Translations under genes and position numbers: made by a program
Shown here: one piece after another, positions 18,303-53,402 of the stretch
Numbering within the stretch: the stretch's first letter is position 1
Layout: each line of letters starts with the position of its first letter
Notes under the pieces: generated by a model
Told to the model about the DNA's origin: nothing
The model's database searches: none
What the model saw: the letters and a program-made list of their open reading frames with translations, nothing else
Sequence record: NC_041919.1
Length of the DNA: 64,000 nt
Origin: Escherichia phage HP3
Reading direction: 5' to 3' (one strand)

Positions 18303-18876
18303 AAGATTTCTCCATTATACGTATAAGGTCGTTCATAAATGAATTAATGTCTGATTTTGCTATTATTTTTATTTGACGAAGTTTTTCATTTTCAAGAACA
18401 GCATCTTCATACGTATTAACAGCAGCAAGTGCTCCTTCATATTGAGGATATTTTCTAGCTTTATCACCTTTATCATACCAAACATATGGATTATCATCGT
18501 ATGATATTAAATTATAAAATTTTTCACCGTTCTCATTCACATGATATACTATTTGGTCTCCACCTACATTTTTGTATTTTTGTATAGATGCTTGATAAGC
18601 TGCTTCTTGTGAAGTAATCCATCCATAATACGGGTCATAATTATCATTACACATCAATAAAACCCAATACAACTGTGGATTTCCATATATAGTATTTGCT
18701 AATTCTTCCGGGCGTGGTGAACCTTTGATATAATAAGTACGTAAGCGGTATCCCGCAAGAGCGCGTTTAAAATAGTCTTTATAGTTTCTAAAAATATCTG
18801 TCATAGGAATAGTCGGCGCGTTTTTATTCACCGTTTTGGCCGCATATTCAATCGGATCAAAAAATGTAAAGAGCAT
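18286..18876 (-). CDS. 53: Baseplate wedge protein gp53
   Basis: 196 aa, same as T4 gp53; overlaps gp5 start. Confidence 0.8.
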   Translation of the reverse strand: MLFTFFDPIEYAAKTVNKNAPTIPMTDIFRNYKDYFKRALAGYRLRTYYIKGSPRPEELANTIYGNPQLYWVLLMCNDNYDPYYGWITSQEAAYQASIQKYKNVGGDQIVYHVNENGEKFYNLISYDDNPYVWYDKGDKARKYPQYEGALAAVNTYEDAVLENEKLRQIKIIAKSDINSFMNDLIRIMEKSYGNDK

Positions 18877-18889
18877 GGGCCCTCCTGTT

Positions 18890-18897
18890 TATAAATA
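18890..18897 (+). promoter_or_regulatory. Late promoter TATAAATA for gene 4
   Basis: tataaata 27 nt upstream of the gp4 ATG. Confidence 0.5.
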
Positions 18898-18904
18898 TAT
18901 TATC

Positions 18905-18912
18905 TATTTATA
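18905..18912 (-). promoter_or_regulatory. Late promoter TATAAATA for gene 53 (divergent)
   Basis: Plus-strand tatttata is TATAAATA on the minus strand, about 29 nt upstream of the gp53 start. Confidence 0.5.
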
Positions 18913-18923
18913 AGGAGAATCCA

Positions 18924-19376
18924 ATGGCATATTCTGGAAAATGGGTTCCTAAAAATATATCAAAGTATAGAGGTGACCCTAAAAAAATTACGTATAGATC
19001 AAATTGGGAAAAATTCTTTTTTGAATGGTTAGATAAAAATCCAGAAATTATTGCATGGGGTAGTGAAACAGCAGTAATTCCTTATTTTTGTAATGCAGAA
19101 GGGAAAAAACGTAGATACTTCATGGATATTTGGATGAAAGATTCTTCTGGACAAGAATTTTTTATTGAAATAAAACCTAAAAAAGAAACACAACCACCAG
19201 TTAAACCGGCACATCTAACAACTGCAGCGAAGAAAAGATTTATGAATGAAATTTATACATATTCCGTTAATACTGACAAATGGAAAGCAGCGCAATCTTT
19301 AGCTGAAAAGCGTGGAATAAAATTTAGAATTCTGACAGAAGATGGATTACGAGCTCTTGGCTTTAAGGGGGCATAA
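18924..19376 (+). CDS. 4: Head completion protein gp4
   Basis: 150 aa, same as T4 gp4; SD ggag upstream. Confidence 0.8.
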
Positions 19377-20200
19377 TGGCTATTTTTCAAATAATTAATG
19401 AAAGCACTCCCCAAGTTCCAAAGGTTAAGCAATCATTAAACGAAAAGAAATGGATTCAGATAGGTCTTGAATATAAAAAGGCCAAAGCAAAAGGAATGAC
19501 AGGAAAGCAATTTGCTGAAGAAAGAGGAATCAAATACTCTACGTTTACTTCAGCAATGTCAAAATATGCTTCAGGAATTAAAACGGCTGAAAAGATTCAA
19601 AAGCTTGAATCAAAACCAATGAATAAACTCAATAAGCAAGAAAGACAACTGCTTATGATAAATTCATTCAGACAAACATTGCGTGATAAAATTCGTAATG
19701 AAGGTGCAGCAATTAATAATAAAACCAGAAAGTGGTTTGCTGAAACTATTAAGCAAGTAAAAGGACATAAAGTTGTTCGCCCGCAGCCGGGACGAATATA
19801 TGCTTTTGCTTATGATGCTAAACACAAGGAAACTCTTCCTTACTGGGATAAATTTCCTTTAATAATTTACCTTGGTTTAGGTAAACATAATTTAATGTAC
19901 GGATTAAACTTGCACTATATTCCACCTAAAGCTCGTCAGCAATTTCTAGAAGAGCTTTTAAAGCAATATGCAAATACACCTACTATTACTAATAAAACGA
20001 AATTAAAAATTGATTGGAGTCAAGTGAAAGGATTTAGGGGTGCAGACCAAATGATTAAGGCATATATACCTGGTAATATTATGGGTAGCCTTGTTGAAAT
20101 CGCCCCGAAAGACTGGGCGAACGTTGTGTTAATGCCACTTCAGCAGTTCGTTTCAAAAGGAAAACGTTTCTCTGCAAACAAAGTCTGGTCAAATATCTAA
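19376..20200 (+). CDS. 2: DNA end protector protein gp2
   Basis: 274 aa, same as T4 gp2. Confidence 0.8.
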
Positions 20201-23967: not shown

Positions 23968-24040
23968 TGGGAATTAGCCAAGTTGGTAAGGCACTGGATT
24001 TTGATTCCAGGATGCAAAGGTTCGAGTCCTTTATTCCCAG
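23968..24040 (+). tRNA. tRNA-Gln (anticodon UUG)
   Basis: Manual fold: acceptor tgggaat/attccca, anticodon stem ctgga/tccag, loop ttttgat, T-loop ttcgagt. Confidence 0.8.
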
Positions 24041-24041
24041 C

Positions 24042-24128
24042 GCGAGAATGGCCAAATTGGTAAAGGCACAGCACTTAAAATGCTGCGGAATGATTTCCTT
24101 GTGGGTTCGAGTCCCACTTCTCGCACCA
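24042..24128 (+). tRNA. tRNA-Leu (anticodon UAA), long variable arm, CCA encoded
   Basis: Acceptor gcgagaa/ttctcgc, anticodon loop cttaaaa, T-arm gtgggttcgagtcccac. Confidence 0.8.
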
Positions 24129-24133
24129 AATTT

Positions 24134-24207
<74 letters not shown>

Positions 24208-24217
24208 ATTTAATTTA

Positions 24218-24291
24218 CTCCGTGTAGCTCAGTTTGGTAGAGCGTCTGCTTTGGGAGCAGAATGTCGTAGGTTCAAATCCTGCCACGGAGA
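24218..24291 (+). tRNA. tRNA-Pro (anticodon UGG)
   Basis: Acceptor ctccgtg/cacggag, anticodon stem tctgc/gcaga, loop tttggga. Confidence 0.8.
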
Positions 24292-24293
24292 CT

Positions 24294-24383
24294 GGAGGCG
24301 TGGCAGAGTGGTTTAATGCACCGGTCTTGAAAACCGGCAGTCGCTCCGGCGACTCATAGGTTCAAATCCTATCGCCTCCGCCA
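24294..24383 (+). tRNA. tRNA-Ser (anticodon UGA), long variable arm, CCA encoded
   Basis: Acceptor ggaggcg/cgcctcc, anticodon stem ccggt/accgg, loop cttgaaa. Confidence 0.8.
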
Positions 24384-24388
24384 GTTTT

Positions 24389-24464
24389 GCTGATTTAGCT
24401 CAGTAGGTAGAGCAACTCACTTGTAATGAGAAGGTCGGCGGTTCGATTCCGTCAATCAGCACCA
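24389..24464 (+). tRNA. tRNA-Thr (anticodon UGU), CCA encoded
   Basis: Acceptor gctgatt/aatcagc, anticodon stem actca/tgaga, loop cttgtaa. Confidence 0.8.
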
Positions 24465-24465
24465 A

Positions 24466-24540
24466 GGCCCTGTAGCTGGAAGGTTCAAGCAAGCGACTCA
24501 TAATCGCCAGATGGTGGTTCAATTCCACCCAGGGCCACCA
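24466..24540 (+). tRNA. tRNA-Ile/Met (anticodon CAU; T4 reads this as Ile after modification), CCA encoded
   Basis: Acceptor ggccctg/cagggcc, anticodon loop ctcataa, T-arm ggtggttcaattccacc. Confidence 0.75.
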
Positions 24541-24549
24541 AATTAATTT

Positions 24550-24636
24550 GGGGAGTTATCCCGTAGAGGTAGCGGTGTGGACTGTAAATTCATTGTCATT
24601 GCGACTCGGGTGGTTCGACTCCACCACTCCCCACCA
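24550..24636 (+). tRNA. tRNA-Tyr (anticodon GUA), long variable arm, CCA encoded
   Basis: Acceptor ggggagt/actcccc, anticodon loop ctgtaaa, T-arm ggtggttcgactccacc; not one of the eight T4 tRNAs. Confidence 0.6.
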
Positions 24637-24640
24637 ATTT

Positions 24641-24715
24641 GGATGTGTAGCTCAATGGCAGAGCGATCGCCTGTTAAGCGATTGGTTATAGGTTCGAATC
24701 CTATCACGTCCGCCA
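24641..24715 (+). tRNA. tRNA-Asn (anticodon GUU), CCA encoded
   Basis: Acceptor ggatgtg/cacgtcc, anticodon stem atcgc/gcgat, loop ctgttaa. Confidence 0.7.
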
Positions 24716-24829
24716 AATTTGTGACAACTGTCACATTAATATCTACTTGACGCGATTATAGGGGTTGAACTGATCACTCTTCTCTTAATTTCGTGTGAAG
24801 ACATCTTGATTGTTGGAGTAGGTATTAAT

Positions 24830-24905
24830 GTGGCCGTAGTTCAGTTGGTAGAACTCGAGATTGTGATTCTCGTAGTCATGGGTTCGACTCCCATCGGTCA
24901 CCCCA
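24830..24905 (+). tRNA. tRNA-His (anticodon GUG) with extra 5-prime G, CCA encoded
   Basis: Acceptor gtggccg/cggtcac, anticodon stem cgaga/tctcg, loop ttgtgat. Confidence 0.7.
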
Positions 24906-24909
24906 ATTA

Positions 24910-24985
24910 CGGGGCATAGCTCAGAAGGAAGAGCAAGGACCTTCTAAGTCCTAGGTCGTAGGTTCGATCCCTACTGCCTCGACCA
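24910..24985 (+). tRNA. tRNA-Arg (anticodon UCU), CCA encoded
   Basis: Acceptor cggggca/tgcctcg, anticodon stem aggac/gtcct, loop cttctaa. Confidence 0.75.
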
Positions 24986-27494: not shown

Positions 27495-28088
27495 ATGAAC
27501 ACACTGAAGAAAATTGTTGAGTTTATTCGCACTAAACTTGGTTCTGCTATGGCTAAAAATCTATCTGTCGAAGAACAGTATACTGCTGCAGCAGCAAAAC
27601 TACTTGATAAAATTAAAGATCTAAAAACTGCTTCTGTTAAATCTATTAACGAAGAAAAACGTATTCGTGAACTTGTTATCGAAAAGAATCGACAGGCCGA
27701 ATCAAAAGAGCGTGAAATTCGTAAACTTCTTTCCGAAGGCCAAGATGTAACAATGCATGCTAAACTCGGTTTACTATATCGTCGAACAGCTGAGCAGTTG
27801 ACTACTAAGGCTGACGGTTATGCTGAAATGCGAATTGAAATCGCCAAGAAAGTAGTTGAGTTAGATGATGCTCGTCAAGAACTTGCGGTTAAATTGGAAT
27901 ATATCCGTGAAACTCGTGCAGCGAATGCCCTTGGAATTAGTACTGCTGATGATGTAGTTGAAATTGCAGCACTGACTAAGGTTGATATTGAAGATACTCT
28001 TGCTCGAGTTGAAACCTTTAATGGTAATATTTCTGGGGTTGAAACTACCTCTGCCGATGTTCAGGAATATATTAATTCTCTGAAATAA
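27495..28088 (+). CDS. Coiled-coil protein (PspA/IM30-like composition, tentative)
   Basis: 197 aa, N-terminal amphipathic helix, long E/K/R-rich helical segments. Confidence 0.45.
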
Positions 28089-28093
28089 TGATA

Positions 28094-28116
28094 AGGGGCT
28101 TCGGGCCCCTATTACT
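28094..28116 (+). terminator. GC hairpin after the coiled-coil gene
   Basis: aggggcttcgggcccct hairpin; poor T-run. Confidence 0.35.
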
Positions 28117-28130
28117 TGGAGTAAATAGGA

Positions 28131-28739
28131 ATGAAAATGCAAAGTGATTTCAATTCAATGTTTGAAGAGTTTCAAAGACAGGTTGATGTTCCAGACCAAT
28201 TACTAAATGCTCTTAAACGCATGGCAGAAGGACGTAATTACTATTGGGGGTCTTCATATGAAACTGATGAAAGCCTTTCCGGAAGATTTTCTAGAGGTAA
28301 AAAGTCTTTAATACGTCCTGGAATACTCATTAACAGTATTGAATCAATTCATTCATTGACGTGTGATTTTGATGTTGAATTTACTGATTTCATTTCTCCT
28401 GAATGGACGGTTTGTTATTTAAACGACGATTTTGATTATCTCGGTGTTTATAGTTTAAGTGACGCATGGTTTAAACGTAATTTACAAAAGTCAAATTTAT
28501 TTTATATTGATACTACTGTAAAATTTCAGGGCAAGAAATATTTCTTTACTCTTATAGTTGATTCTGAAACGAAGCATGAAAATAAACGTATTCTTAGTAA
28601 AAAGAATATCTTAACTATTGTTGATGATCTTTTTGATAAATTTGTAGAAAATCCCAATTTTGAAAGTGATTTATTACTAGAAAAATTTGTTAAGGAATGT
28701 AGAGAATATGTCAAAGCCATCACTATACCTTCCAAGTAA
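28131..28739 (+). CDS. Hypothetical protein, first member of the junction-motif series
   Basis: 202 aa; C-terminal region contains EKFVKECREY; overlaps the next gene start. Confidence 0.5.
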   Translation: MKMQSDFNSMFEEFQRQVDVPDQLLNALKRMAEGRNYYWGSSYETDESLSGRFSRGKKSLIRPGILINSIESIHSLTCDFDVEFTDFISPEWTVCYLNDDFDYLGVYSLSDAWFKRNLQKSNLFYIDTTVKFQGKKYFFTLIVDSETKHENKRILSKKNILTIVDDLFDKFVENPNFESDLLLEKFVKECREYVKAITIPSK

Positions 28740-29100
28740 ACCGTTGAAGTATGAATTAAAGCGTCAGATAATTTCTACTGATGTGTTAATAGGTCCTGTT
28801 ATACTCATATCATTTGTAATTCTATTGATTATTGGAGGTGTTTTAGATGTTATGACTGATATTGATTCTGGCGAAATACTTGTGTTAATGCTAATTCTTC
28901 CATTAATAGTTCCACTTTTATTAGTACCCGTAAATTGGGTAGGATACTGGTATCAAGGAAGGCATTATCGTAAACGCGTACGTGATTGGAAAGCACAGTG
29001 TAAAAAGATTAAAAAGGAACATCAGCTTAAACTTGCTGCGTATGAATTTGATGAAATTATGAAATTTGTTAAGGAATCACGATGCAAAAGCCAAAACTAA
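28708..29100 (+). CDS. Membrane protein with C-terminal FVKESRCK motif
   Basis: 130 aa; two hydrophobic segments; start from ATG with SD aggaa. Confidence 0.5.
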   Translation: MSKPSLYLPSKPLKYELKRQIISTDVLIGPVILISFVILLIIGGVLDVMTDIDSGEILVLMLILPLIVPLLLVPVNWVGYWYQGRHYRKRVRDWKAQCKKIKKEHQLKLAAYEFDEIMKFVKESRCKSQN

Positions 29101-29444
29101 ATAAAGTCAAATATTCGTTTTCTGAGTCATTTTTAATTTTTGCTGTGGCGTTGGCTGCAGCTCTTGCAGGTAGTCTTTTTGGATTGTTAATTGACTGTCT
29201 TATTTTAAACATCGACGGCACAGTAAATATAACAGAAGTTTGGAGTGAGCTTTGTTATACTAAAATTATTTCATTGTTTTCATTCTTTGGTATCATTTTA
29301 TATTTTCATTATGATAATTTTAAAATAAATTGGCAAAGAAAAAAAGATTACAAAATACAATTAAAAGAATATAATAGCTACATGTCTTATATTGAAAATG
29401 AGTCAATGAAAGAGTTTGTGAGTGATTGTAGGAAAATTAAATGA
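29082..29444 (+). CDS. Membrane protein with C-terminal FVSDCRKIK motif
   Basis: 120 aa; two hydrophobic helices; start embedded in the upstream gene end. Confidence 0.5.
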   Translation: MQKPKLNKVKYSFSESFLIFAVALAAALAGSLFGLLIDCLILNIDGTVNITEVWSELCYTKIISLFSFFGIILYFHYDNFKINWQRKKDYKIQLKEYNSYMSYIENESMKEFVSDCRKIK

Positions 29445-29929
29445 TTTTAAAAACTCGCTGGTATGATTTAGATGATGGGGATGATGGCATTTCAGTTGAT
29501 AGAGTTGACTGGAATGGTTGTTCCGAAGATATGAAAAATTTGTTGATTAGGGAGTTTAGAATGGGATATCAAGCAGCTAAGCCATTTACTGTAACAGATG
29601 ATAAGTTCGTATGTATTCAAAACGGTCGCGCTAAGTTAACGAATGCTGATTGGTTCACAGATAAGAAGGTTCTTCTGTGGTATATCATTAGTCTTCCTAT
29701 ATCATCGTTCGTATTTTACTTTTTTATAAAAAATCCAATGGACAGAATAGGAGATTGGGTTCTTTTAACTATACTTGTTAATATTTTTACAGCAGCAGTA
29801 TTATCAGGAATATGGCGTATGTTCATTGAAATGCCATGGCGTTTACGCAGACAACAAAAGATTTTTGATGAAAAGAAATATGCTCAAAATTTAAATAACT
29901 TTATCACTGAATGCAGGAAATTAAAATGA
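29441..29929 (+). CDS. Membrane protein with C-terminal FITECRKLK motif
   Basis: 162 aa; two hydrophobic helices in the C-terminal half. Confidence 0.5.
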   Translation: MILKTRWYDLDDGDDGISVDRVDWNGCSEDMKNLLIREFRMGYQAAKPFTVTDDKFVCIQNGRAKLTNADWFTDKKVLLWYIISLPISSFVFYFFIKNPMDRIGDWVLLTILVNIFTAAVLSGIWRMFIEMPWRLRRQQKIFDEKKYAQNLNNFITECRKLK

Positions 29930-30366
29930 AAACATTATCAGCTGGTATTATCTTCATGACAGAAGATAAAGATTTATTTATGGGTCGGGTTACTGGTTCT
30001 CGTAAGCCTGGAATGATGGCACATCGCTGGGATATTCCAAAGGGACGTGTAGAAAGTTCTGATTTGAATGCACTGGAAGCTGCAAAAAGAGAATGCTTAG
30101 AAGAGACCGGTTTTAGCAATTATAATCCAGACCTTCTAGAAGACCTAGGTGTATTTAAATATTCTAGTAATAAAGACTTACAGTTATTTTATTATACGAT
30201 TCCAGTAGAGCATGAGATGTTTAGAAATTGCCATTGCGAGTCTTATTTTGAAAATAAAGATGGCGTTATGATTCCAGAGATGGATGCTTTTGCTCTTATT
30301 CCTCGTACTCAGTGGCAATATGTGATGGGTCCTTCACTTTACCGAATAATGAACAGCCTCTTTTAA
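29926..30366 (+). CDS. nudE: Nudix hydrolase NudE
   Basis: Nudix box GRVESSDLNALEAAKRECLEETGF; start at 29926 preferred because of SD aggaaa; the ATG at 29911 would give 151 aa. Confidence 0.75.
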   Translation: MKTLSAGIIFMTEDKDLFMGRVTGSRKPGMMAHRWDIPKGRVESSDLNALEAAKRECLEETGFSNYNPDLLEDLGVFKYSSNKDLQLFYYTIPVEHEMFRNCHCESYFENKDGVMIPEMDAFALIPRTQWQYVMGPSLYRIMNSLF

Positions 30367-30897
<531 letters not shown>

Positions 30898-30902
30898 AGT
30901 TG

Positions 30903-30931
30903 TTTACTTTCTCCTAGAATTGTGATAGTAT
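30903..30931 (+). promoter_or_regulatory. Early promoter with stem-loop over the -10
   Basis: -35 tttact, 17 nt spacer, -10 tagtat; inverted repeat tgtga / tcaca. Confidence 0.5.
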
Positions 30932-30956
30932 ATTCACAGTTACTTGGAGGGATAAA

Positions 30957-31373
30957 ATGACTCGTATTAATTTGACTTTAGTATCTGAACTTGCTGATCA
31001 ACATTTAATCGCAGAATACCGTGAATTGCCGCGTGTTTTTGGTATAGTTCGTAAGCATGTGGCAAACGGTAAGCGCGTTAAAGATTTTAAAATATCTTCT
31101 AAATTTATTTTAGGTTCTGGTCATGTTACTTTCTTTTACGATAAGTTAGAATTTTTGCGAAAGCGTCAATCGGACATTATAACGGAATGCTTAAAACGCG
31201 GGTTCAGTATAAAAGATACTGAAGTTCCTGACATCAGCGATATTCCAGTAGAATGGAAAAATGATTATAATCCATGCAAATCAGCTATTAAGTTGAGTCA
31301 ACAACGACTCGATGAAAAAATTTTAATGAAGCCACACTGGTATAAGTATTACGGCAAAAATATTTACATTTAA
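30957..31373 (+). CDS. denV: Endonuclease V (pyrimidine dimer DNA glycosylase)
   Basis: 138 aa; [17 protein letters not shown]...[11 protein letters not shown] matches recalled T4 DenV. Confidence 0.95.
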
Positions 31374-31518
31374 ATAACATGGGAATAACCTGGACCTCAT
31401 GATTCTGTGAGGGATTCCCGCCAACCTGTAATAAGGTCGAGCCCAAGTGCGGTAATGGGTAAATACAGAAATGGACAATTCATGCGCCATGGAATGGCCC
31501 AAACCTAGAGAGAACAAA

Positions 31519-32058
31519 ATGAGAACATTTTTAACTGGTCCTTATCTATCCCTGATGAATGCTTTTACACACCATTCTGATGCTAGAGTAGAAGAAATTT
31601 GTAAAAACGAATATATCCCGCCATTTGAAGACTTACTTAAACAGTATTGTACACTTCGACTAGATGGTGGGCGTCAATCTGGTAAATCAACTGCAGTAAC
31701 TAATTTTGCCGCTAATTGGTTGTATGACGGTGGAACAGTTATTGTTCTTTCTAATACTTCAGCTTACGCTAAAATTTCCGCAGATAATATTAAAAAGGAA
31801 TTTTCGCGTTATTCTAATGATGATATACGTTTTCGTTTATTTACTGATTCTGTGCGCAGTTTTATTGGTAATAAAGGAAGCAAGTTCAGAGGTTTATCGC
31901 TTTCGCGAATTTTGTATATAATTGATGAGCCTGTCAAATCTCCTGATATGGATAAGATTTATAGTGTCCATATTGACACTGTACACTGCTGCTGTAATAT
32001 TAAATGTTGCATTGGTGGTATTACTCGTCCACAGTTTTTCGTAATCGGAATGCAATGA
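31519..32058 (+). CDS. P-loop NTPase-like hypothetical protein
   Basis: 179 aa from ATG after SD agaga; Walker A-like GGRQSGKST; Cys-rich C-terminus. Confidence 0.5.
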   Translation: MRTFLTGPYLSLMNAFTHHSDARVEEICKNEYIPPFEDLLKQYCTLRLDGGRQSGKSTAVTNFAANWLYDGGTVIVLSNTSAYAKISADNIKKEFSRYSNDDIRFRLFTDSVRSFIGNKGSKFRGLSLSRILYIIDEPVKSPDMDKIYSVHIDTVHCCCNIKCCIGGITRPQFFVIGMQ

Positions 32059-32384
32059 TGACAGACACTCAGCTTTTCGAATATCTTTATTTTTCGCCAA
32101 AAACTATTAAAAATAAATTGGTGAATCATTTTGAAATTTTGGCAAATAACAACGTCTTGAGCGAATTTTATCCTAAGCAATACAAATTACAAAAAGGTGT
32201 ATTCAAAGGATGCAGAGTTTTGTGTACTGCTCCTAATGCAAGATTAATGAATAAAATTCCATATTTTACCATGGAATTTATTGATGGACCTTTTAAAGGA
32301 CTAATCACCCAAAGTTTAATGGCATATGATTCTGAGCCATTTTTAATTAAAGAACAGTCTTGGATAAATTTATTTTCTAATTGA
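32055..32384 (+). CDS. Hypothetical protein
   Basis: 109 aa; ATGA overlap with the upstream gene. Confidence 0.45.
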   Translation: MMTDTQLFEYLYFSPKTIKNKLVNHFEILANNNVLSEFYPKQYKLQKGVFKGCRVLCTAPNARLMNKIPYFTMEFIDGPFKGLITQSLMAYDSEPFLIKEQSWINLFSN

Positions 32385-32390
32385 GGTTAT

Positions 32391-32753
32391 ATGAAAGCAT
32401 ATCAAATTCTTGAAGGCACGCATAAAGGTACTATTTATTTTGAAGATGGTATTCAAGCACGAATTATTGTTTCTAAAACCTTTAAAGAGGACTCTTTTGT
32501 AGACCCAGAAATTTTCTACGGTTTGCATGCCCGTGAAATTGAAATTGAGCCACAGCCTACAGTTAAAATTGAAGGTGGTCAACACCTGAACGTTAACGTT
32601 CTGCGTCGTGAAACTCTGGAAGATGCAGTTAAGCATCCGGAAAAATATCCGCAGCTGACCATCCGTGTATCCGGTTATGCAGTTCGCTTTAACTCTCTGA
32701 CTCCGGAACAGCAGCGCGACGTTATCGCTCGTACCTTTACTGAGAGCTTGTAA
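32391..32753 (+). CDS. GrcA/YfiD-like autonomous glycyl radical cofactor
   Basis: 120 aa; glycyl radical motif [25 protein letters not shown]; C-terminal about 60 aa match recalled E. coli GrcA; host-like codon usage. Confidence 0.85.
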
Positions 32754-32974
32754 TGGCAAAGATAATTATTGAAGGTTCTAAAGATGTGTTAAATGCTTTC
32801 GCAGAATGGTTTAGTAATTCAGGCGAACAGCAATTTAATGAAGCGTGGAATATGGGTGATATTAGTGGAATTTATCCTACGACAGAAATTTCTGTTCAGG
32901 GATATGGCATTCATGAACCTATTCGTTTAGTTGAATACGATTTATGTACTGGTGAGGAAGTCAAATATGATTGA
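32753..32974 (+). CDS. Hypothetical protein
   Basis: 73 aa; stop-start overlap with the GrcA-like gene. Confidence 0.4.
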   Translation: MAKIIIEGSKDVLNAFAEWFSNSGEQQFNEAWNMGDISGIYPTTEISVQGYGIHEPIRLVEYDLCTGEEVKYD

Positions 32975-33233
32975 AGATATTAAAGGTTATAAGCCACATA
33001 CCGACGAAAAAATCGGTAAAGTAAATGCTATTAAAGACGCTGAAGTTCGTTTAGGACTTATCTTTGATGCTTTATATGATGAATTCTGGGAAGCACTAGA
33101 TAATTGCGAAGACTTTGAACTCGCGAAGAATTATGCTGAAAGCCTCGATCAGTTAGCTATTGCTAAAACGAAACTCAAAGAAGCCAGTATGTGGGCTTGT
33201 CGTGCTGTGTTCCAACCAGAGGAAAAATACTAA
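32967..33233 (+). CDS. Hypothetical helical protein (vs.4 position)
   Basis: 88 aa from ATG after SD gaggaag; positional only. Confidence 0.4.
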
Positions 33234-33511
33234 TGGCTCAATTAAGCGCAGGGTTTGGTTATGAGTATTATACTGCCCCTCGTCGTGTGTCTGCTGCTCC
33301 TAAGAAAATTCAAAGTCTTGATGACTTCCAGGAAGTAGTCCGTAACGCTTTCCAGGACTATGCACGGTATCTTAAAGAAGATTCACAGGACTGTCTCGAA
33401 GAAGATGAAATTGCTTACTATACGCAGCGTCTTGAACAGCTCAAAAATCTACATGAGGTTCGTGCCGAAGTTTCAAAGTCTATGAATAAATTGATTAGAT
33501 TTAAAGAATAA
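33233..33511 (+). CDS. Hypothetical protein
   Basis: 92 aa; ATG overlapping the upstream stop. Confidence 0.45.
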
Positions 33512-33514
33512 CTG

Positions 33515-33543
33515 TTTACTTTTCCTCTTGACTGTGGTATAAT
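33515..33543 (+). promoter_or_regulatory. Early promoter upstream of regB
   Basis: -35 tttact, 17 nt spacer, extended -10 tggtataat. Confidence 0.6.
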
Positions 33544-33570
33544 TTTTCTATCAGTTAAGAGGAGAATAAC

Positions 33571-34032
33571 ATGACTATCAACACAGAAGTTTTTATCCGT
33601 CGAAATAAGCTTCGTCGTCACTTTGAGTCGGAGTTTCGTCAAATTAACAATGAGATTCGTGAGGCATCAAAAGCAGCAGGGGTCTCATCGTTTCATCTAA
33701 AATATTCTCAGCATCTTCTTGATCGTGCAATTCAACGGGAGATTGATGAGACATATGTTTTTGAATTATTCCACAAAATAAAAGACCATGTTTTAGAAGT
33801 TAATGAATTCCTGAGTATGCCTCCGCGTCCTGACATTGATGAGGATTTTATTGATGGGGTTGAATACCGTCCTGGACGTTTAGAAATCACAGATGGAAAT
33901 CTTTGGCTTGGATTTACAGTTTGTAAACCTAATGCGAAGTTCAAAGACCCGTCGCTTCAATGCAGGATGGCAATTATCAATAGTCGTCGTTTACCAGGAA
34001 AGGCTTCTAAAGCAGTAATTAAAACTCAATGA
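33571..34032 (+). CDS. regB: Sequence-specific endoribonuclease RegB
   Basis: 153 aa; MTINTEVFIRRNKLRRHFESEF... matches recalled T4 RegB. Confidence 0.85.
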   Translation: MTINTEVFIRRNKLRRHFESEFRQINNEIREASKAAGVSSFHLKYSQHLLDRAIQREIDETYVFELFHKIKDHVLEVNEFLSMPPRPDIDEDFIDGVEYRPGRLEITDGNLWLGFTVCKPNAKFKDPSLQCRMAIINSRRLPGKASKAVIKTQ

Positions 34033-34039
34033 GGTAAGC

Positions 34040-34585
34040 ATGAGAAAAGCACTACTCGCTGGTCTATTGGCCATTTCAATGATGGCACATAGCTCCGAGC
34101 ATACTTTCAGTAATGTCCAACTCGATAACATGCGTTACGCGTATCAATTCGGGGAACAATTTTCTAAGGATGGAAAATATAAAACACACAAAAATATCCA
34201 CAAGAGCGGATTAGGTCATATAATGGCTGCTATTTTATGGCAAGAAAGCTCTGGCGGAGTTAATTTAAAATCTAAACCAAAGCATCATGCCTATGGAATG
34301 TTCCAAAATTATTTGCCTACTATGCGAGCGAGAGTCAAGGAACTTGGTTATAATATGACCGATGCTGAAATAAAAAGAATGTTGAATAAACGGTCCAATT
34401 CAGCTTCCTGGGCGTACATTGAACTTTCTTATTGGTTAAATATACATAAGGGCGATATAAGAAAAGCAATATCCTCTTATAATTCGGGATGGAATGTTAA
34501 AGCTGGTTCTAAATATGCTTCTGAAGTCCTAGAAAAGGCTAATTACCTTAAAAATAATAAACTTTTGGAAATAGTAAATGACTAA
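34040..34585 (+). CDS. Secreted lytic-transglycosylase-like protein (vs.1 position)
   Basis: 181 aa; signal peptide MRKALLAGLLAISMMAHS; LWQESSGG resembles an SLT catalytic motif. Confidence 0.5.
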   Translation: MRKALLAGLLAISMMAHSSEHTFSNVQLDNMRYAYQFGEQFSKDGKYKTHKNIHKSGLGHIMAAILWQESSGGVNLKSKPKHHAYGMFQNYLPTMRARVKELGYNMTDAEIKRMLNKRSNSASWAYIELSYWLNIHKGDIRKAISSYNSGWNVKAGSKYASEVLEKANYLKNNKLLEIVND

Positions 34586-34919
34586 AATTTTGGTTTTATG
34601 TATAGGATTAATTTCATTTTCTGCGTTAGCAGATACATCATATACTGAAATTAGAGAGTATGTAAACCGTACTGCCGCGGATTATTGTGGGAAAAATAAA
34701 GCATGCCAAGCTGAATTTGCGCAGAAATTAATATATGCATATAAAGACGGAGAAAGAGATAAATCAAGCAGATACAAAAACGATACATTATTAAAACGAT
34801 ATGCTAAAAAGTGGAATACCTTAGAATGTTCAGTTGCGGAGGAGAAAGATAAAGCCGCTTGTCATTCAATGGTTGACCGTTTGGTAGATTCTTATAATCG
34901 AGGATTGAGTACTAGATGA
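34578..34919 (+). CDS. Secreted/periplasmic small protein (vs position)
   Basis: 113 aa; signal peptide MTKILVLCIGLISFSALA; four Cys. Confidence 0.45.
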   Translation: MTKILVLCIGLISFSALADTSYTEIREYVNRTAADYCGKNKACQAEFAQKLIYAYKDGERDKSSRYKNDTLLKRYAKKWNTLECSVAEEKDKAACHSMVDRLVDSYNRGLSTR

Positions 34920-35383
34920 TTGTAAAATATATCAAGGGCGATATTGTCGCCCTTTTCGCTGAAGGTAAAAATATTGCGCATGGATGCAATTGTTTTCATA
35001 CTATGGGTTCAGGCGTAGCGGGTCAATTAACCAAAGCTTTCCCTAAAATTTTGGAAGCTGATAAATTACAGACTGAATGGGGTGATGTAACTAAACTCGG
35101 TTCTTACTCAGTCTATGAAAAATACTTTAGGACTCATAAAGCGTATTGCTTCAACCTTTATACTCAATTTCAACCAGGGCCAAATTTTGAGTATTCCGCT
35201 TTAATGAATTGTATGTTAGAATTAAATGAGTTTGGTGAAAATAAACTGATTAAACCTACAATCTATATGCCTAGGATTGGTGCAGGCATAGGTAAAGGGA
35301 ACTGGGATATTATTGAGGGGATTTTAGATACATATTCCTCTAAATTAGAAATTGTGATTGTTGATTGGGAACCGTTATTATGA
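34916..35383 (+). CDS. Macro-domain protein (ADP-ribose binding/processing)
   Basis: 155 aa; GDIVALFAEGKNIAHGCNCFHTMGSGVAGQL and C-terminal IGAGIGKGNW resemble macro-domain GDIT...NAAN...GGGV and glycine-rich loop motifs. Confidence 0.6.
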   Translation: MIVKYIKGDIVALFAEGKNIAHGCNCFHTMGSGVAGQLTKAFPKILEADKLQTEWGDVTKLGSYSVYEKYFRTHKAYCFNLYTQFQPGPNFEYSALMNCMLELNEFGENKLIKPTIYMPRIGAGIGKGNWDIIEGILDTYSSKLEIVIVDWEPLL

Positions 35384-35592
35384 ATATACATTATCCACAT
35401 CCATATGACCCAAAGAATAAGGCAGTAATTATTCGTCAATGGGAACGCATTTGCCGTACTAAATGTCCAATTAATAGTCCGCATGATGTAGATAAAGACT
35501 ACATTGGAACATTCGTTGAATATACCTTTATTGATAAGAAAGGTCGTAAACAGCATGTAGAAGAATACTGCTTAAAGGTTACATGGTTATGA
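35380..35592 (+). CDS. Hypothetical protein
   Basis: 70 aa; start overlaps the macro gene end. Confidence 0.4.
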   Translation: MNIHYPHPYDPKNKAVIIRQWERICRTKCPINSPHDVDKDYIGTFVEYTFIDKKGRKQHVEEYCLKVTWL

Positions 35593-35795
35593 GCCAAACT
35601 AGTATTCTTAAAAATGCCCATTGTGAAAAGTGTAAATGGCCAGTTGTTTTTGCTTTATGCAACGATGAAATGGCTTGTGATTTCGATTATTGGTGCTATT
35701 GTTCTAATAAAGGATGCATCAATCATAAAGGTGAAGGATTTTATTCGGGATTTTATCCTTATCCAGATTTCGTTAAAGAAGGTAAACCGAAATGA
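35583..35795 (+). CDS. Cys/His-rich small protein (zinc-binding candidate)
   Basis: 70 aa with HCEKCKW...CNDEMACDFDYWCYCSNKGCINH. Confidence 0.4.
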   Translation: MVMSQTSILKNAHCEKCKWPVVFALCNDEMACDFDYWCYCSNKGCINHKGEGFYSGFYPYPDFVKEGKPK

Positions 35796-35964
35796 ATAGT
35801 TTTGAGTTACAGTATGAAGTGTTACGTGAGCTTGATAATTTAATTGAACTCGCTGTCAATAAAGGTTTTGCCATTGGAATCGGTCAAAAAGATACTGGTC
35901 ATTTAACTATGGAAATATTTAAGCAAAAGCGAATTATTTTAAAACTCCTGGAAATTAATATATG
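35792..35964 (+). CDS. Hypothetical small protein
   Basis: 57 aa ORF (MNSFELQYEVLRELDNL...) with stop-start overlaps on both sides. Confidence 0.3.
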
Positions 35965-36147
35965 AGTCTGAGTAAAGAACAAAAAGATAAATTGTTTGAG
36001 CTTATCCATGAACTTCTAGATGAGCATACAGAAGCAAACACCTTTTATGATGAATACGGCCCGCTATCTCCCGAACAGCAAGAAGAATTTGCTGATCGGT
36101 TTGATAAGAAAGAAAACGAATTAATAGCTTATGTGAATATGCTTTAA
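35962..36147 (+). CDS. Hypothetical acidic small protein
   Basis: 61 aa. Confidence 0.4.
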   Translation: MSLSKEQKDKLFELIHELLDEHTEANTFYDEYGPLSPEQQEEFADRFDKKENELIAYVNML

Positions 36148-36156
36148 GAAGGTGAT

Positions 36157-36738
36157 ATGGCGAGTTTAATTTTTACTTACGCAGCAATGAATGCTGGAAA
36201 ATCTGCTTCTCTTTTGACTGCTGCACATAATTATAAAGAACGCGGAATGGGTGTATTAGTTCTTAAGCCTGCTATTGATACTCGCGATTCTGTCTGTGAA
36301 GTCGTTTCTCGCATTGGAATTAAGCAGGAAGCGAATATTATTACGGATGATATGGATATTTTTGAGTTCTATAAATGGGCTGAAGCACAAAAAGATATTC
36401 ATTGTGTATTTGTAGATGAAGCTCAGTTTTTAAAAACTGAACAGGTGCATCAATTAAGTCGAATTGTTGATACATATAATGTTCCTGTTATGGCTTATGG
36501 GCTAAGGACTGATTTCGCTGGAAAATTATTTGAAGGTTCTAAAGAACTTTTGGCGATTGCAGATAAACTTATTGAACTAAAGGCAGTTTGTCATTGTGGT
36601 AAAAAAGCTATTATGACAGCTCGATTAATGGAAGATGGAACACCAGTTAAAGAAGGTAATCAAATCTGTATTGGTGATGAAATTTATGTTTCTTTGTGTA
36701 GAAAACATTGGAATGAATTAACTAAAAAGCTCGGTTAG
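36157..36738 (+). CDS. tk: Thymidine kinase
   Basis: 193 aa; P-loop AAMNAGKSASL; C-terminal CHCGKKA...C zinc ribbon typical of TK1 family. Confidence 0.9.
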   Translation: MASLIFTYAAMNAGKSASLLTAAHNYKERGMGVLVLKPAIDTRDSVCEVVSRIGIKQEANIITDDMDIFEFYKWAEAQKDIHCVFVDEAQFLKTEQVHQLSRIVDTYNVPVMAYGLRTDFAGKLFEGSKELLAIADKLIELKAVCHCGKKAIMTARLMEDGTPVKEGNQICIGDEIYVSLCRKHWNELTKKLG

Positions 36739-36780
36739 TGCAAAAGTTATAAATAGGTTTATCTAACTAAAGGGGTATAT

Positions 36781-36993
36781 ATGCTACAATTAACTGAAAA
36801 GCAACTTCGCAATCTTACTGTTCTTCAATTAGATGAAATTCGTAGGGAAGTTGGAAATATCATTTCAGCTTTGCGTCGAGAAGTATCACTCAACCAATCT
36901 CCGGCAGACTATACTAGATTGCGAAATTTTGAAAAATACCTTGATAAAGTTAAGGCCGTGCATCGGCATAAAGTAAATACAGGACAAAAATGA
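36781..36993 (+). CDS. Hypothetical protein
   Basis: 70 aa between tk and rI. Confidence 0.45.
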
Positions 36994-37005
36994 TAGGAGG
37001 CCTTT

Positions 37006-37299
37006 ATGGCCTTAAAAGCAACGGCACTATTTGCCATGCTAGGATTAGCGTTTGCTTTATCTCCACCAATTGAAGCGAATGTCGATCCTCATTTTGATAA
37101 ATTTATGGAATCTGGTATTAGGCACGTTTATATGCTTTTTGAAAATAAAAGCGTAGAATCGTCTGAACAATTCTATAGTTTTATGAGAACGACCTATAAA
37201 AATGACCCGTGCTCTTCTGATTTTGAATGTATAGAGCGAGGCGCGGAGATGGCACAATCATACGCTAGAATTATGAACATTAAATTGGAGACTGAATGA
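37006..37299 (+). CDS. rI: Lysis inhibition regulator rI
   Basis: 97 aa; MALKATALFAMLGLAFALSPPIEA signal-anchor; matches recalled T4 RI. Confidence 0.85.
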   Translation: MALKATALFAMLGLAFALSPPIEANVDPHFDKFMESGIRHVYMLFENKSVESSEQFYSFMRTTYKNDPCSSDFECIERGAEMAQSYARIMNIKLETE

Positions 37300-37682
37300 A
37301 ATTCAGCGACTTTTCACAAAGTGGAAAACCTTCAAAGGCAGATGAATACTTAGGTTTATTAATGGCTGCACAAGCTTATTTTCATTCTGCGCATTTTGAA
37401 ACTAAAAGTTATGCTAGACACAAAGCATACGATTTTATTTTCTCTGAGTTGCCAGATTTGATTGATAAATTTGGTGAGCAATATTTGGGGTATTCTGGTA
37501 GAAAATACACGCCTTCTATTCCAGATGCCAGTAAACTTCCTACCGACACAATTAAAATGATTGATCGCATACTAGACCAATCTAACAGCATTTATAAAGA
37601 AATGCCTCCAGCCATTCAAAGCACGATAGATGATATTACTGGGATGTTTTACCAGAGTAAATATCTTCTTTCCCTCGAATAA
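37296..37682 (+). CDS. Hypothetical protein
   Basis: 128 aa; ATGA overlap with rI. Confidence 0.5.
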
Positions 37683-37686
37683 CATT

Positions 37687-37710
37687 AGTCTCCTTCGGGA
37701 GACTTTTTTC
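37687..37710 (+). terminator. Intrinsic terminator
   Basis: agtctccttcgggagact hairpin followed by tttttt. Confidence 0.6.
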
Positions 37711-37720
37711 ATTTTACCGG

Positions 37721-37749
37721 TTTACTTTCCATTTGAGCTGTGATACTAT
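37721..37749 (+). promoter_or_regulatory. Early promoter
   Basis: -35 tttact, 17 nt spacer, -10 tactat, conserved leader acaactatc. Confidence 0.55.
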
Positions 37750-37777
37750 ACAACTATCGGATAAAGAGGAGAACATC

Positions 37778-37966
37778 ATGAAAATTGAAGCACTTAATCA
37801 AGAAGGAAATATCTACGTCATCATTAATGGTGATTTTTTCGTCGACATGGATGAAGTTACTAGTGAAGAACTTGTAGAACTTCTTAAGAAACGTTATGAT
37901 ATGTGTGATGAAGCTGCAACTCATATGGCGTGTGCAATATTCTCTCTTTCATATGTGGTGGAATAA
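37778..37966 (+). CDS. Hypothetical small acidic protein
   Basis: 62 aa from ATG after SD aagaggag. Confidence 0.4.
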
Positions 37967-38169
37967 TGACTAGAATTGAACAAGCAGATAAAATTAAAGA
38001 ATTGGTAGCTTTAATTCGCAAAGCAGATGAGGAACTTAGTGACTTTGCTTGGTTTTCGGCAGGCATTGCAAATAAAGGTATTGAAAAATTTGAAGCTAAA
38101 GTTGATAATGCTTTAGAAGCGTTAGATATGTTTCTTGATGAAATTATCGATCATAATACGAGAGTTTAA
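37966..38169 (+). CDS. Hypothetical small helical protein
   Basis: 67 aa; ATGA overlap. Confidence 0.4.
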   Translation: MTRIEQADKIKELVALIRKADEELSDFAWFSAGIANKGIEKFEAKVDNALEALDMFLDEIIDHNTRV

Positions 38170-44698: not shown

Positions 44699-45721
44699 AT
44701 GAAAACTCGTTCTCAAATTGAAGATATGGTTCGTAATGCCAGCTATACTCGTGATGCTATGACATTTTTGTGCGAAAATAATTTAGACCTTGGTAAAGTT
44801 AATTGTTCCATTCACGCCTTTAAACATCTGAACAGCAGTGAATGGGTGCGTAATTTTAATGAAGCTGGGTATATTACTCAAATGACTGCTCGTGAACAGC
44901 TCACCGATTTCTGTAAAACTATTGATTATAAAAATCCTCTATTTGTTCAAGGTGTTGGTCAGAGTAAGGTCGATTTATCATCTGGATTTTTCAATCCAAA
45001 TCATTATCGTATTGAATGGAGATTTATTGCTCTATTCCGTAAACAATTAAAGCAAATTTTGTCTACTGCTAGTCGATTAAAAGGTTCTGATATTAACTTA
45101 AAGAATCTGAAATTTGATGGTTATACTCTTCAGATGGAAGTAAGACCATTAAAAGAAAATAACAGAACTGCACGAATTAGCTTTAAACCTAATACAAAAA
45201 ATTCTCTTTCAATTTGTGAATGCCTTAAATCACAGTTGACAGAAGCATTTAAGTATATGGATGTAGTTGCCGCGGTTCAGTCTAAGATTTTACCTCATTT
45301 TGAGCGAAATTGGGAACATACAACAACGTATGAACTTGATATGATCGTTTCATTTAAATACGATTTTTTGAGAAAGGACGAAGTCCCGCAAGAGAAAAAG
45401 CAGGAAGTGCAAGATATCTTAAATTTATCCAATTACTCATCAAACGATCCTAAATTTTGGATGTATAGTTCAGGTAATAAAGATACATGGAAATTCAATA
45501 AAGTGAATTTTCTTCCTGTTGAAAATCCGAGTCTTAAACCTGTTGAAAAATGGCACGCGGATGCGATTGAGAAGTCTATCAAGGCAGTAGATGATGAACT
45601 CGTTAAAGCAACTAATGAAGTGTTAGAAGCTGAAAAGATGCTAGAAAAAGCTCAAGAAAAAGTCAAAAATCTTACGAAGCAACGTTCTAAACTGAACAAC
45701 GCACTAAATGCACTAAACTAG
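44699..45721 (+). CDS. Paralog family member B
   Basis: 340 aa; FRKQLKQILSTASRLKG and KYMDVVAAV motifs; C-terminal coiled coil. Confidence 0.5.
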   Translation: MKTRSQIEDMVRNASYTRDAMTFLCENNLDLGKVNCSIHAFKHLNSSEWVRNFNEAGYITQMTAREQLTDFCKTIDYKNPLFVQGVGQSKVDLSSGFFNPNHYRIEWRFIALFRKQLKQILSTASRLKGSDINLKNLKFDGYTLQMEVRPLKENNRTARISFKPNTKNSLSICECLKSQLTEAFKYMDVVAAVQSKILPHFERNWEHTTTYELDMIVSFKYDFLRKDEVPQEKKQEVQDILNLSNYSSNDPKFWMYSSGNKDTWKFNKVNFLPVENPSLKPVEKWHADAIEKSIKAVDDELVKATNEVLEAEKMLEKAQEKVKNLTKQRSKLNNALNALN

Positions 45722-45750
45722 TTTACTTTGCCACAAGGATGTGGTATAAT
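45722..45750 (+). promoter_or_regulatory. Early promoter
   Basis: -35 tttact, 17 nt spacer, extended -10 tggtataat. Confidence 0.55.
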
Positions 45751-45778
45751 GTTCTTACTTTCTACTGAGGAGATTAAT

Positions 45779-46780
45779 ATGACTCGTAACGAATATATCA
45801 AATCATTCAATAGCGTTATTGATGATAAAGTTAAACCTGTGTTTAGTCAGAATAGTGTTATTTCCATTATCAATCAATGGCTCAATAATATTGATGCAAG
45901 TATTGTTTCTTCAAGCAAATTTATTCATGAAGTTCATAAAATTTCTAGTCGCGAATATAAAGATGATATTAAGGAAACTTTTAAAGGTTCTCGTCTTCTT
46001 TCATATTTAGTTAATCAAGATATTCTTGGTAAATTTGGGAAAGAAATTAAACGAACTAAAGATGTAGTAGGATACAGTTGGTTCGGTGATGTTAATTCTT
46101 ATCATCTTAATAATAAAGAAGACCCTGAGAATATTTTTACTCGTCGTTGGATTAGTAATTTTAGACTTTTCAAGAAGCAAATTCTAAAATCAGCTTCTAA
46201 ATTATGCTATGGTGATTATCGTCAAATCCATCCTTGGGCTTCTGATATGATTATCATAAAAGAATATGAGCTTGATAAAAATAAAGCAGCTATTTTTGTG
46301 AATTATGAATTTTTTACACCAGAAGCTAATCAAAAGAACATTAATAAATTTTTCTCAATTGCTAGCGATATAACTCGTCAGTTAGAGACCGCATTACTTT
46401 GTATGGAAACAGTAGAAAATATTCATACTTATCCTTTTAAGAATATATGCGGTTGGGAAGGATATAAAATTGTAGTTAGTCTCCGTGAAGTAAAGTGTGC
46501 GTACTCACCGACTGATAAAGAAATTTACCAACAAAAATGTGATGAAATTGTGAATACTCCTAAAGAAGAAACTACCCTTGAGGAACTAATGGAATGTCTT
46601 GACGATTCGCCTGAACCAGTAGAAATTCGTCCAGAAGTTATTGCACTAGAAAAAGCTTATAAAGAAGTTCTAGAAATTTCTAATAAAGCGCAGAAAGAAT
46701 ATGAGCAGGCTAAAAAGATTTGGGAAGAATCCGTTAATCGTCTTGATCGTCTTGAACAAGCTTTACAGTTAATTAAGTAA
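45779..46780 (+). CDS. Paralog family member C
   Basis: 333 aa from ATG after SD gaggag; FKKQILKSASKL motif; C-terminal coiled coil. Confidence 0.5.
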   Translation: MTRNEYIKSFNSVIDDKVKPVFSQNSVISIINQWLNNIDASIVSSSKFIHEVHKISSREYKDDIKETFKGSRLLSYLVNQDILGKFGKEIKRTKDVVGYSWFGDVNSYHLNNKEDPENIFTRRWISNFRLFKKQILKSASKLCYGDYRQIHPWASDMIIIKEYELDKNKAAIFVNYEFFTPEANQKNINKFFSIASDITRQLETALLCMETVENIHTYPFKNICGWEGYKIVVSLREVKCAYSPTDKEIYQQKCDEIVNTPKEETTLEELMECLDDSPEPVEIRPEVIALEKAYKEVLEISNKAQKEYEQAKKIWEESVNRLDRLEQALQLIK

Positions 46781-46832
46781 TTTAAAGCCAAGGATGGCTC
46801 GGAGTATAAACCATTAACCAAGTGAGAAGAAT

Positions 46833-47762: not shown

Positions 47763-48148
47763 AAAAGCGTTTATTAGAAGACATTGCAGCTTCAAGTAAT
47801 TCCAGTTTAATTAAAATTATTATGGCTGGTGAGGAAGATGATATGGAAATGCGTGGAAAGATTCACGGCTGCGACGATTTAGATTTTAAACCTCCAGCAT
47901 GGGATGCTATTATGGCTATGGTTGAACGACGTGAAAGAGCTTCTAAAAACGTTCCTAATTGCCCTGAATGCGGTACTGAACAAGTTCAGTTGATTAACTG
48001 GCGTAAACCAGAGCTTGAATATAAATGCCGTCAATGTAAACATAAATTCAGTAAGCATGCTCCGGAAATGGTTAAATTGCCTGACTCTACTGAGTTCTTT
48101 AAAGAACTTGTGAGTGTTCAACCAATGCCTAATAATATTTTGGATTAA
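47759..48148 (+). CDS. Zinc-ribbon protein
   Basis: 129 aa; CPECG...17 aa...CRQC four-Cys ribbon. Confidence 0.45.
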
Positions 48149-48150
48149 AA

Positions 48151-48393: not shown

Positions 48394-48394
48394 T

Positions 48395-48870: not shown

Positions 48871-48872
48871 AT

Positions 48873-53400: not shown

Positions 53401-53402
53401 TT

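Follow-up and report, generated by a model that had tools for sequence, protein, structure and literature searches.

Only two spare-part proteins have been validated biochemically, YfiD (GrcA) of Escherichia coli and Y06I of phage T4 (PMC8683613). Both receive a radical from the activase of pyruvate formate-lyase (PFL) and restore the activity of PFL cleaved by O2, according to the summary of Wagner et al. (2001) in PMC8683613. Residues 1–60 of YfiD are disordered and help to bind the cleaved PFL, residues 61–127 duplicate residues 693–759 of PFL and carry the radical installed by the activase (PMC8683613). Y06I is encoded by the T4 gene vs.6, on which an early comment was based on Pfam only (PMC1524935).

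We have analyzed the corresponding gene of Escherichia phage HP3, in a window of 64,000 nt (the whole stretch of DNA under analysis, from sequence record NC_041919.1). All coordinates refer to this window. The gene and its biochemical role are already known, and no new kind of system is involved. The subject of this work is the origin of its DNA, which combines a phage part and a part identical to the host gene.

The vs.6 gene and its neighbours

The gene and its surroundings are described in Table 1. To judge from its sequence, the open reading frame is vs.6/Y06I of a Tequatrovirus, a T4-type phage. Over bases 28000–38000 of the window, identity is 100% with Escherichia phage HP3.2, practically 100% with HP3.1, and 98–99% with many Tequatroviruses. 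The name vs.6 is used in RB32 and T4. More than 900 phage records are annotated as vs.6 or GrcA, and most of them label the gene as "autonomous glycyl radical cofactor". A first-pass annotation of this DNA had mentioned a T4 homolog of YfiD. The HP3 gene is the ortholog of that gene itself: its product differs from T4 in one amino acid, and the order vs.8-vs.7-vs.6-vs.5 is common to both phages. Both the identity over the whole gene and the position between vs.7 and vs.5 place it in the orthologous group of T4 vs.6 in the Tevenvirinae.

Table 1. Features of vs.6 and of related or neighbouring genes in the HP3 window.
Feature	Coordinates	Strand	Remarks
Lysozyme e	30403-30897		Upstream of vs.6
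denV	30957-31373		Upstream of vs.6
vs.7 homolog	Stop TGA ends at 32384		Upstream of vs.6; TGA overlapped by GAGG
Shine-Dalgarno GAGG	32383-32386	+	4 nt 5' of ATG; read from sequence
vs.6/Y06I gene	32391-32753	+	120 aa; from ORF list
N-terminal part (N-part), phage-type DNA	32391-32568	+	Codons 1-59 and first base of codon 60
Putative host-derived conversion tract	32569-32743	+	175/175 identical to E. coli grcA
Predicted radical glycine Gly95	32673-32675	+	GGT codon; from alignments to 6OWR and PFL
Phage-type 3' tail	32744-32753	+	Last 3 codons and TAA; from pairwise alignment
vs.5 homolog	32753-32974		Final A of vs.6 TAA is the A of vs.5 ATG
regB	33571-34032		Downstream of vs.6
vs.1	34040-34585		Downstream of vs.6
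nrdD	50163-51980		605 aa; NRDD and Gly_radical domains; 18 kb downstream of vs.6
HNH endonuclease ORF	51977-52609		Between nrdD and nrdG, overlaps both
nrdG activase	52515-53069		Radical SAM

Two other features of this region should be noted. An open frame of 129 amino acids with a TTG start covers all of vs.6 on the minus strand (32370–32759). It shows no evidence of being a gene, and we have regarded it as a mechanical open reading frame. A promoter-like site (TTTACT, 17 nt spacer, TATAAT, with an upstream TG) is found at 33515–33543, just before regB. It is the best-placed consensus match of the region. The scan for promoters and terminators gave 15 sites, versus 16.7 expected, with no enrichment over shuffled sequence.

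The protein and its probable function

Residues 61–101 correspond to the Pfam Gly_radical domain (66.8 bits). The best NCBIfam model is that of GrcA (TIGR04365), which covers residues 20–120 with a score of 153.3 bits. The curated cutoff of this model is 170 bits, E. coli GrcA scores 233.9, and the phage protein falls short because its N-part is diverged and shorter. We have thus treated it as belonging to a phage subfamily of GrcA-like proteins, not as a strict member of the bacterial equivalog. Among solved structures the top match is YfiD (6OWR), with residues 22–120 aligned to 28–127 (E = 9e-42). PFL comes next, with residues 58–120 aligned to PFL 697–759 (E = 5e-26). As expected for a spare-part protein of about 14 kDa, Vs.6 is small and stands alone, its C-terminal glycyl-radical domain is homologous to PFL 693–759, and it contains the motif RVSGYAV (R92-V93-S94-G95-Y96-A97-V98). 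In the alignments Gly95 is equivalent to G102 of YfiD and G734 of PFL, whose radical role has been described (PMC8683613).

In the first-pass annotation about 60 C-terminal residues appeared to be those of E. coli GrcA, and this is exact: residues 61–120 are identical to GrcA 68–127 in 60 of 60 positions. The other part of the protein, about 55 N-terminal residues, had been described as phage-specific. This is correct for the DNA, which is of phage type, but the protein is not unrelated to GrcA. The N-part encodes a diverged homolog of the N-terminal half of GrcA, which in GrcA is disordered and binds cleaved PFL. It aligns by itself to the GrcA N-terminus with 14 of 39 identical residues (36%, E = 1e-5). 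Homology to grcA thus extends over the full length of the phage gene. Full-length homologs are also found in distant T4-like and T5-like phages. An unrelated phage N-terminus fused to a captured host fragment has been rejected, since the N-part is homologous to GrcA.

By analogy with its T4 ortholog, with a single amino acid difference, and with YfiD, HP3 Vs.6 is inferred to be an autonomous glycyl radical cofactor. Its action during infection would be as follows. O2 would cleave the host PFL at its radical glycine, and the C-terminal domain of Vs.6 would dock into the cleaved protein. PflA, the activase of the host, would then put the radical on Gly95, and the conversion of pyruvate to acetyl-CoA and formate would resume. 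The phage might gain in two ways: fermentative energy supply (acetyl-CoA, ATP) would be upheld in a micro-oxic infection, and formate would be kept available for the phage anaerobic ribonucleotide reductase NrdD. Class III ribonucleotide reductases use formate as reductant.

The genes nrdD and nrdG are found in the same window, so the phage has a second glycyl-radical protein (NrdD) and its own activase (NrdG). The HNH open reading frame which overlaps both genes looks like a homing-endonuclease insertion.

A host-identical tract inside vs.6

We have compared vs.6 with all 5426 complete E. coli genomes by BLASTN. In every one of these genomes, gene positions 179–363 match chromosomal grcA in 183 of 185 positions (E = 7e-86), and there is no match upstream of gene position 179. 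The two differences from E. coli, GAG/GAA and TTG/CTG, are both within the last 10 bases. This 3' tail is variable among phages, whereas the tract is not. The tract encodes residues 61–117 (YfiD 68–124), almost the whole structured glycyl-radical domain. Just upstream of it, identity to E. coli grcA falls to about 45–50%, as estimated by eye from the alignment.

Base composition changes at the same place. GC is 0.348 in the N-part and 0.491 in the tract, GC3 is 0.22 and 0.421, respectively, and the latter is the value of E. coli grcA. In the tract all leucine codons are CTG (5), all proline codons are CCG (3), and arginine is coded by CGT or CGC. The N-part uses CTT/TTG, CCA/CCT and CGT/CGA for these amino acids, and also ATT. 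Host-like codon usage against an AT-rich background, as claimed in the first reading of this DNA, is thus found, and the break sits exactly at the identity boundary. A GC content as high as that of the tract appears in 0.8% of the 175-nt windows in the 64 kb, and most of them are in the tRNA cluster.

When the whole 64-kb window is compared with the 5426 genomes, the tract is the sole match with at least 95% identity. Bases 1–20000 and 45001–64000 have no megablast match to E. coli genomes. The other E. coli matches in the BLASTN comparison of vs.6 are only 60–80% identical, and pflB or tdcE have therefore been rejected as donors.

The tRNA cluster mentioned above (23968–24985) has 11 genes (Gln, Leu, Gly, Pro, Ser, Thr, Met, Tyr, Asn, His, Arg). 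T4 has 8 tRNA genes. The tRNA-Tyr region (24547–24639) has 88% identity with a plasmid record of E. coli O111:H8. Among the matches listed for the 64-kb window, it is the only E. coli match besides the grcA tract.

The mosaic is confirmed, far beyond chance. It has the features of a gene-conversion tract: sharp breakpoints, no synonymous divergence inside (dS = 0), divergence outside and donor-like composition. A chimeric consensus produced by host reads in the phage assembly would also give a sharp boundary, and nothing beyond this boundary points to such an artefact. More than 600 phage genomes sequenced independently, the T4 reference among them, show this mosaic with an identical junction. 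The tract also keeps the reading frame, and the codons on both sides of it in the same open reading frame are of phage type. We consider that an artefact is hardly credible.

Direction of the exchange

Synonymous distances (dS) have been calculated by the Nei–Gojobori method. For the tract, dS is 0 versus E. coli, 0.05 versus another Escherichia species, 0.38 versus Citrobacter and 1.13 versus Salmonella. These values increase with the distance between hosts, so the tract follows the host phylogeny. When host grcA genes from different species are compared, their N- and C-terminal parts have similar dS. The host gene is thus not a mosaic, which indicates a transfer from host to phage. The opposite direction, a host which gained the tract from a phage, has been rejected on these same grounds.

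Exchange or constraint

The bacterial reference for the comparison with other phages was a set of 163 sampled grcA sequences. A GTDB scan for bacterial grcA covered 80 loci, without K. pneumoniae.

Identity to the host gene might be explained by constraint. In such a case there would be a single ancient capture or conversion in the T-even ancestor, and selection would have held the near-identity ever since, even at synonymous sites (mRNA structure, translation efficiency). The protein domain is indeed extremely conserved in all homologs, and the 5' junction is common to all Tequatrovirus and Mosigvirus copies. Several results speak against this possibility. Krischvirus JSE and the T5-like phage VEc33 are coliphages with closely related radical domains, and the best nucleotide match of these domains to the sampled bacterial genes is only 72.5% and 77%, respectively. 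Conservation of the protein is thus not enough to impose identity on the DNA. The 100% identity of HP3 to E. coli grcA over 175 nt is clearly above these values of 72–77%. Within genera the tract does not change more slowly than the N-part at synonymous sites, its rate is equal or faster: dS between the Mosigviruses LF82-1 and EP32a is 0.12 in the N-part and 0.24 in the tract. Finally, phages with different host alleles are found, both in Tequatrovirus (IME537) and in Klebsiella phages, as described below. An ancient capture maintained by selection is very improbable, and it may be considered as largely refuted already.

Other phage groups have no sign of a recent exchange. This is the case of Slopekvirus, Pseudotevenvirus, the Enterobacter phage id4496 group, Nanhuvirus, Krischvirus, T5-like and Aeromonas phages, whose best identity to the sampled bacterial grcA is 72–89%. 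In these seven groups there is little or no GC3 step. The upper value, 89%, corresponds to Pseudotevenvirus, with a GC3 of 0.33 -> 0.46.

Some of these phages are intermediate. The tract protein is identical to the Klebsiella type in Slopekvirus (L084, L263) and to the E. coli/Citrobacter type in Pseudotevenvirus (L085, L086, L190-L194). In both groups the best nucleotide identity to sampled grcA is 84–89% and GC3 is intermediate. Older conversions which are decaying, or donors outside our sample, are possible explanations.

Tracts of the E. coli type

The vs.6 genes of HP3 and T4 (NC_000866) are very similar in both parts: 174/178 (97.8%) in the N-part and 174/175 (99.4%) in the tract. Different genera are more informative. 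The HP3 N-part has 87–88% nucleotide identity with Mosigvirus and 72% with Jiaodavirus. In the comparison with Mosigviruses there are 22 differences in the 178 nt of the N-part (dS 0.55) and only 2–7 in the 175 nt of the tract (dS 0.05–0.18). In the case of LF82-1 the numbers are 22/178 and 2/175 (Fisher p = 2e-5). Since the tract is nearly identical in spite of a diverged N-part, it appears to have been homogenized after the two genera split.

A revealing case is Tequatrovirus IME537. Its tract is identical to grcA of E. coli O157:H7 TR01 in 172 of 175 positions, and in 169 of 175 to the HP3-type allele. All three variants which separate the TR01 allele from the HP3-type allele are present in IME537, and two of them are transversions. 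The O157-type transfer would correspond to tract positions 26–158, so that the identical flanks left inside the tract would measure only about 25 nt and 17 nt. Such flanks are short for classical homologous recombination, a difficulty for our interpretation.

On the other hand, none of the 7 differences in EP32a matches any E. coli allele better, and they have the appearance of a converted tract in decay. Taken over all variable sites, the overlap between phages and E. coli alleles is only marginal (p = 0.056), and part of the variants shared by phages and hosts could be due to recurrent mutation at synonymous sites. Allele-specific combinations, such as the three variants of IME537, are stronger evidence than site overlap.

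The E. coli-type tract in both Tequatrovirus and Mosigvirus could have spread from phage to phage after one host-to-phage event. More generally, we should consider a single transfer from host to phage in each host genus, followed by lateral spread among co-infecting T-even phages, with ordinary mutation as the source of the remaining variation. T-even phages recombine freely. A single common E. coli allele is close to the tracts of both Tequatrovirus and Mosigvirus, most differences from it are private singletons, and the differences in EP32a also fit this explanation. Nevertheless, the O157-type triplet of IME537 needs more than one donor. The same is true of Klebsiella, where at least two alleles are found in Jiaodaviruses with nearly identical N-parts. 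One transfer per host genus is therefore unlikely, and we favour repeated conversion by host genes.

Some phages isolated from other hosts also have E. coli-type tracts. Yersinia phage phiD1 and Serratia phage PhiZZ30, both of the Tequatrovirus type, have an E. coli-type tract (98–99%), not the allele of the host they were isolated from. Among the matches listed, Yersinia phage PYps11T, Citrobacter phage CrRp10 and Salmonella phage F13076 have N-parts with 96–98% identity. To judge from the distribution of identity, these three phages would also have an E. coli-type tract. The tract may preserve a trace of the host in which a phage lineage usually grows.

Tracts of the Klebsiella type

In Jiaodaviruses, which infect Klebsiella, vs.6 is built in the same way, but its tract is of the Klebsiella type. 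GC3 rises sharply (0.25 -> 0.61), and the protein has the signature LLDAVEH of Klebsiella instead of LEDAVKH of E. coli. GrcA from E. coli and Klebsiella differ in only two residues in the tract, which correspond to E77L and K81E in the phage protein. The 5' junction is identical in Tequatrovirus, Mosigvirus and Jiaodavirus (…VKI|EGGQHLN, gene nt 178/179). The 3' junction differs by genus: it is found at gene nt 353/354 in HP3 and at 339–345 in Jiaodavirus.

At least two Klebsiella alleles can be distinguished. Phage vB_KpnM_17-11 (Kp17-11) is identical to metagenome contig L102 in 164 of 164 positions, up to its own 3' junction. Over 171 nt, dS is 0.07 versus L102 and 0.65 versus E. coli. L102 is bacterial: it contains a full-length grcA gene (127 aa) followed by a DEAD-box helicase gene, and the protein encoded by this grcA gene is the same as GRCA_KLEP7 of K. 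pneumoniae. The assignment of the metagenome contigs to a Klebsiella donor species is inferred from the exact protein match and the flanking genes. The second allele (L099-L101) shares 5 of 6 variants with Jiaodavirus L204 from IMG/VR. Pairs of Jiaodaviruses have 1–4 differences in the 178 nt of the N-part but 7–12 in the 171 nt of the tract (p = 0.005 for one pair). Other alleles, taken from proteins with the Klebsiella-type motif, have been discarded as non-matching (166/183). The IMG/VR scan gave only about 7 T-even copies, from a dereplicated collection.

Independent events are thus indicated by the O157-type allele in IME537 and by the L102-type and L099-type Klebsiella alleles in Jiaodaviruses.

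Several unusual copies have been detected. The N-part of L204 is disrupted and leaves an open reading frame of 80 aa. In metagenomes, the T-even-type Vs.6 variants P0023, P0041 and P0045 have internal deletions in the glycyl-radical loop or beside it, and in P0041 the radical glycine itself is deleted. These deletions and the disruption of L204 could be assembly errors or decaying copies. Among bacteria, a genome labelled as Vagococcus sp. WN89Y has an Enterobacteriaceae-type ung-grcA locus, probably a contamination or mislabelling. In Klebsiella sp. WOUb02, grcA is found on a 275-kb replicon annotated as a plasmid.

Discussion

Recombination with the host gene had been suggested from the sharp change in composition. 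Our results support this suggestion and refine it: a pre-existing homolog appears to have been converted, more than once, by several host alleles from different genera. HP3 vs.6 very probably encodes the autonomous cofactor of T4-type phages, and its mosaic would result from repeated conversion of a phage homolog by host grcA. All the support for conversion events is comparative. From such comparisons, the diversity of the tract appears to mirror the pool of host grcA alleles, not the phage tree.

The history of the DNA can be read from the sequence comparisons. In an old AT-rich phage homolog of grcA, the 175 nt coding for the structured radical domain have been overwritten by host grcA. The upstream boundary of the tract is the point where similarity between phage and host ends. 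The downstream boundary lies close to the end of the gene, some 10 nt from the stop and within its final codons, and the flanks beyond have no homology. The process would have been repeated with several donors: at least two E. coli alleles in Tequatrovirus, an E. coli-type allele in Mosigvirus and several Klebsiella alleles in Jiaodavirus. With such repeated overwriting, the phage radical domain would track the grcA allele pool of its current host. The probable route is homologous or homeologous recombination, or break-induced copying, with host DNA as template and the T4 recombination machinery.

Once present, a host-identical tract may act as a landing pad which favours later conversions. 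T-even phages break down the DNA of their host and contain modified cytosine, two properties which are generally considered to limit such exchange. The tract might renew itself in spite of this, with virulent T-even phages which keep copying the grcA allele of their current host. The arguments for and against a self-renewing landing pad appear to us evenly balanced. If it is correct, T-even phages would recombine with the host chromosome at appreciable rates in nature, they would keep a spare part matched to the PFL and PflA of their host, and the tract would be a readable record of the recent host species of a phage. Allele matching may be adaptive, or it may be a neutral by-product.

In our full-text literature search we have found no description of the nucleotide mosaic of vs.6 or of its recurrent conversion by host alleles, an earlier mention being possible. 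It would be a clear natural example in which a strictly lytic phage with modified DNA overwrites one functional module of a gene, again and again, with the allele of its current host. The pattern extends over three or more phage genera and involves hosts of two genera. Its confirmation would allow recombination from hosts to T-even phages to be quantified in nature and provide a ready experimental system, as well as a small marker of host history for T4-like therapeutic phages. It also raises the question of whether a spare-part protein must match the host enzyme and activase exactly.

Comparison with known systems

The closest known system is T4 Vs.6/Y06I (NP_049730), an ortholog with 120 amino acids and the same neighbours, which also has a host-identical tract. 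Only allelic differences are found. HP3 has R73 and T4 has H73; the HP3 tract agrees with the common E. coli allele at 175 of 175 positions, and that of T4 departs from it by a single nonsynonymous change; 2 of the 10 bases in the 3' tail differ.

E. coli GrcA/YfiD (P68066; NMR structure 6OWR) shares with the phage protein its C-terminal 60 residues, including RVSGYAV. The two-part architecture is also common: N-terminal disorder is known for YfiD, and the phage half is homologous to it by sequence. The phage protein is 7 residues shorter than GrcA, and its N-terminal half, coded by AT-rich DNA, is 36% identical in 39 aligned residues. The locus is different: vs.6 is found in an early-gene block of a virulent phage, while E. 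coli grcA is located between ung and eamB.

A more distant parallel is psbA of cyanophages, an auxiliary metabolic gene of host origin which has been reported to exchange internal segments with host genes. Like genes of the psbA type, vs.6 is a host-type metabolic gene in a lytic phage, it would sustain host metabolism, and part of the gene appears to be exchanged with the host copy. Unlike them, exchange in vs.6 appears to be limited to a single functional module of 175 nt with fixed junctions, whose identity to the present host alleles is 100% or close to it, and it would take place in T-even phages which contain hydroxymethylcytosine and destroy the DNA of their host.
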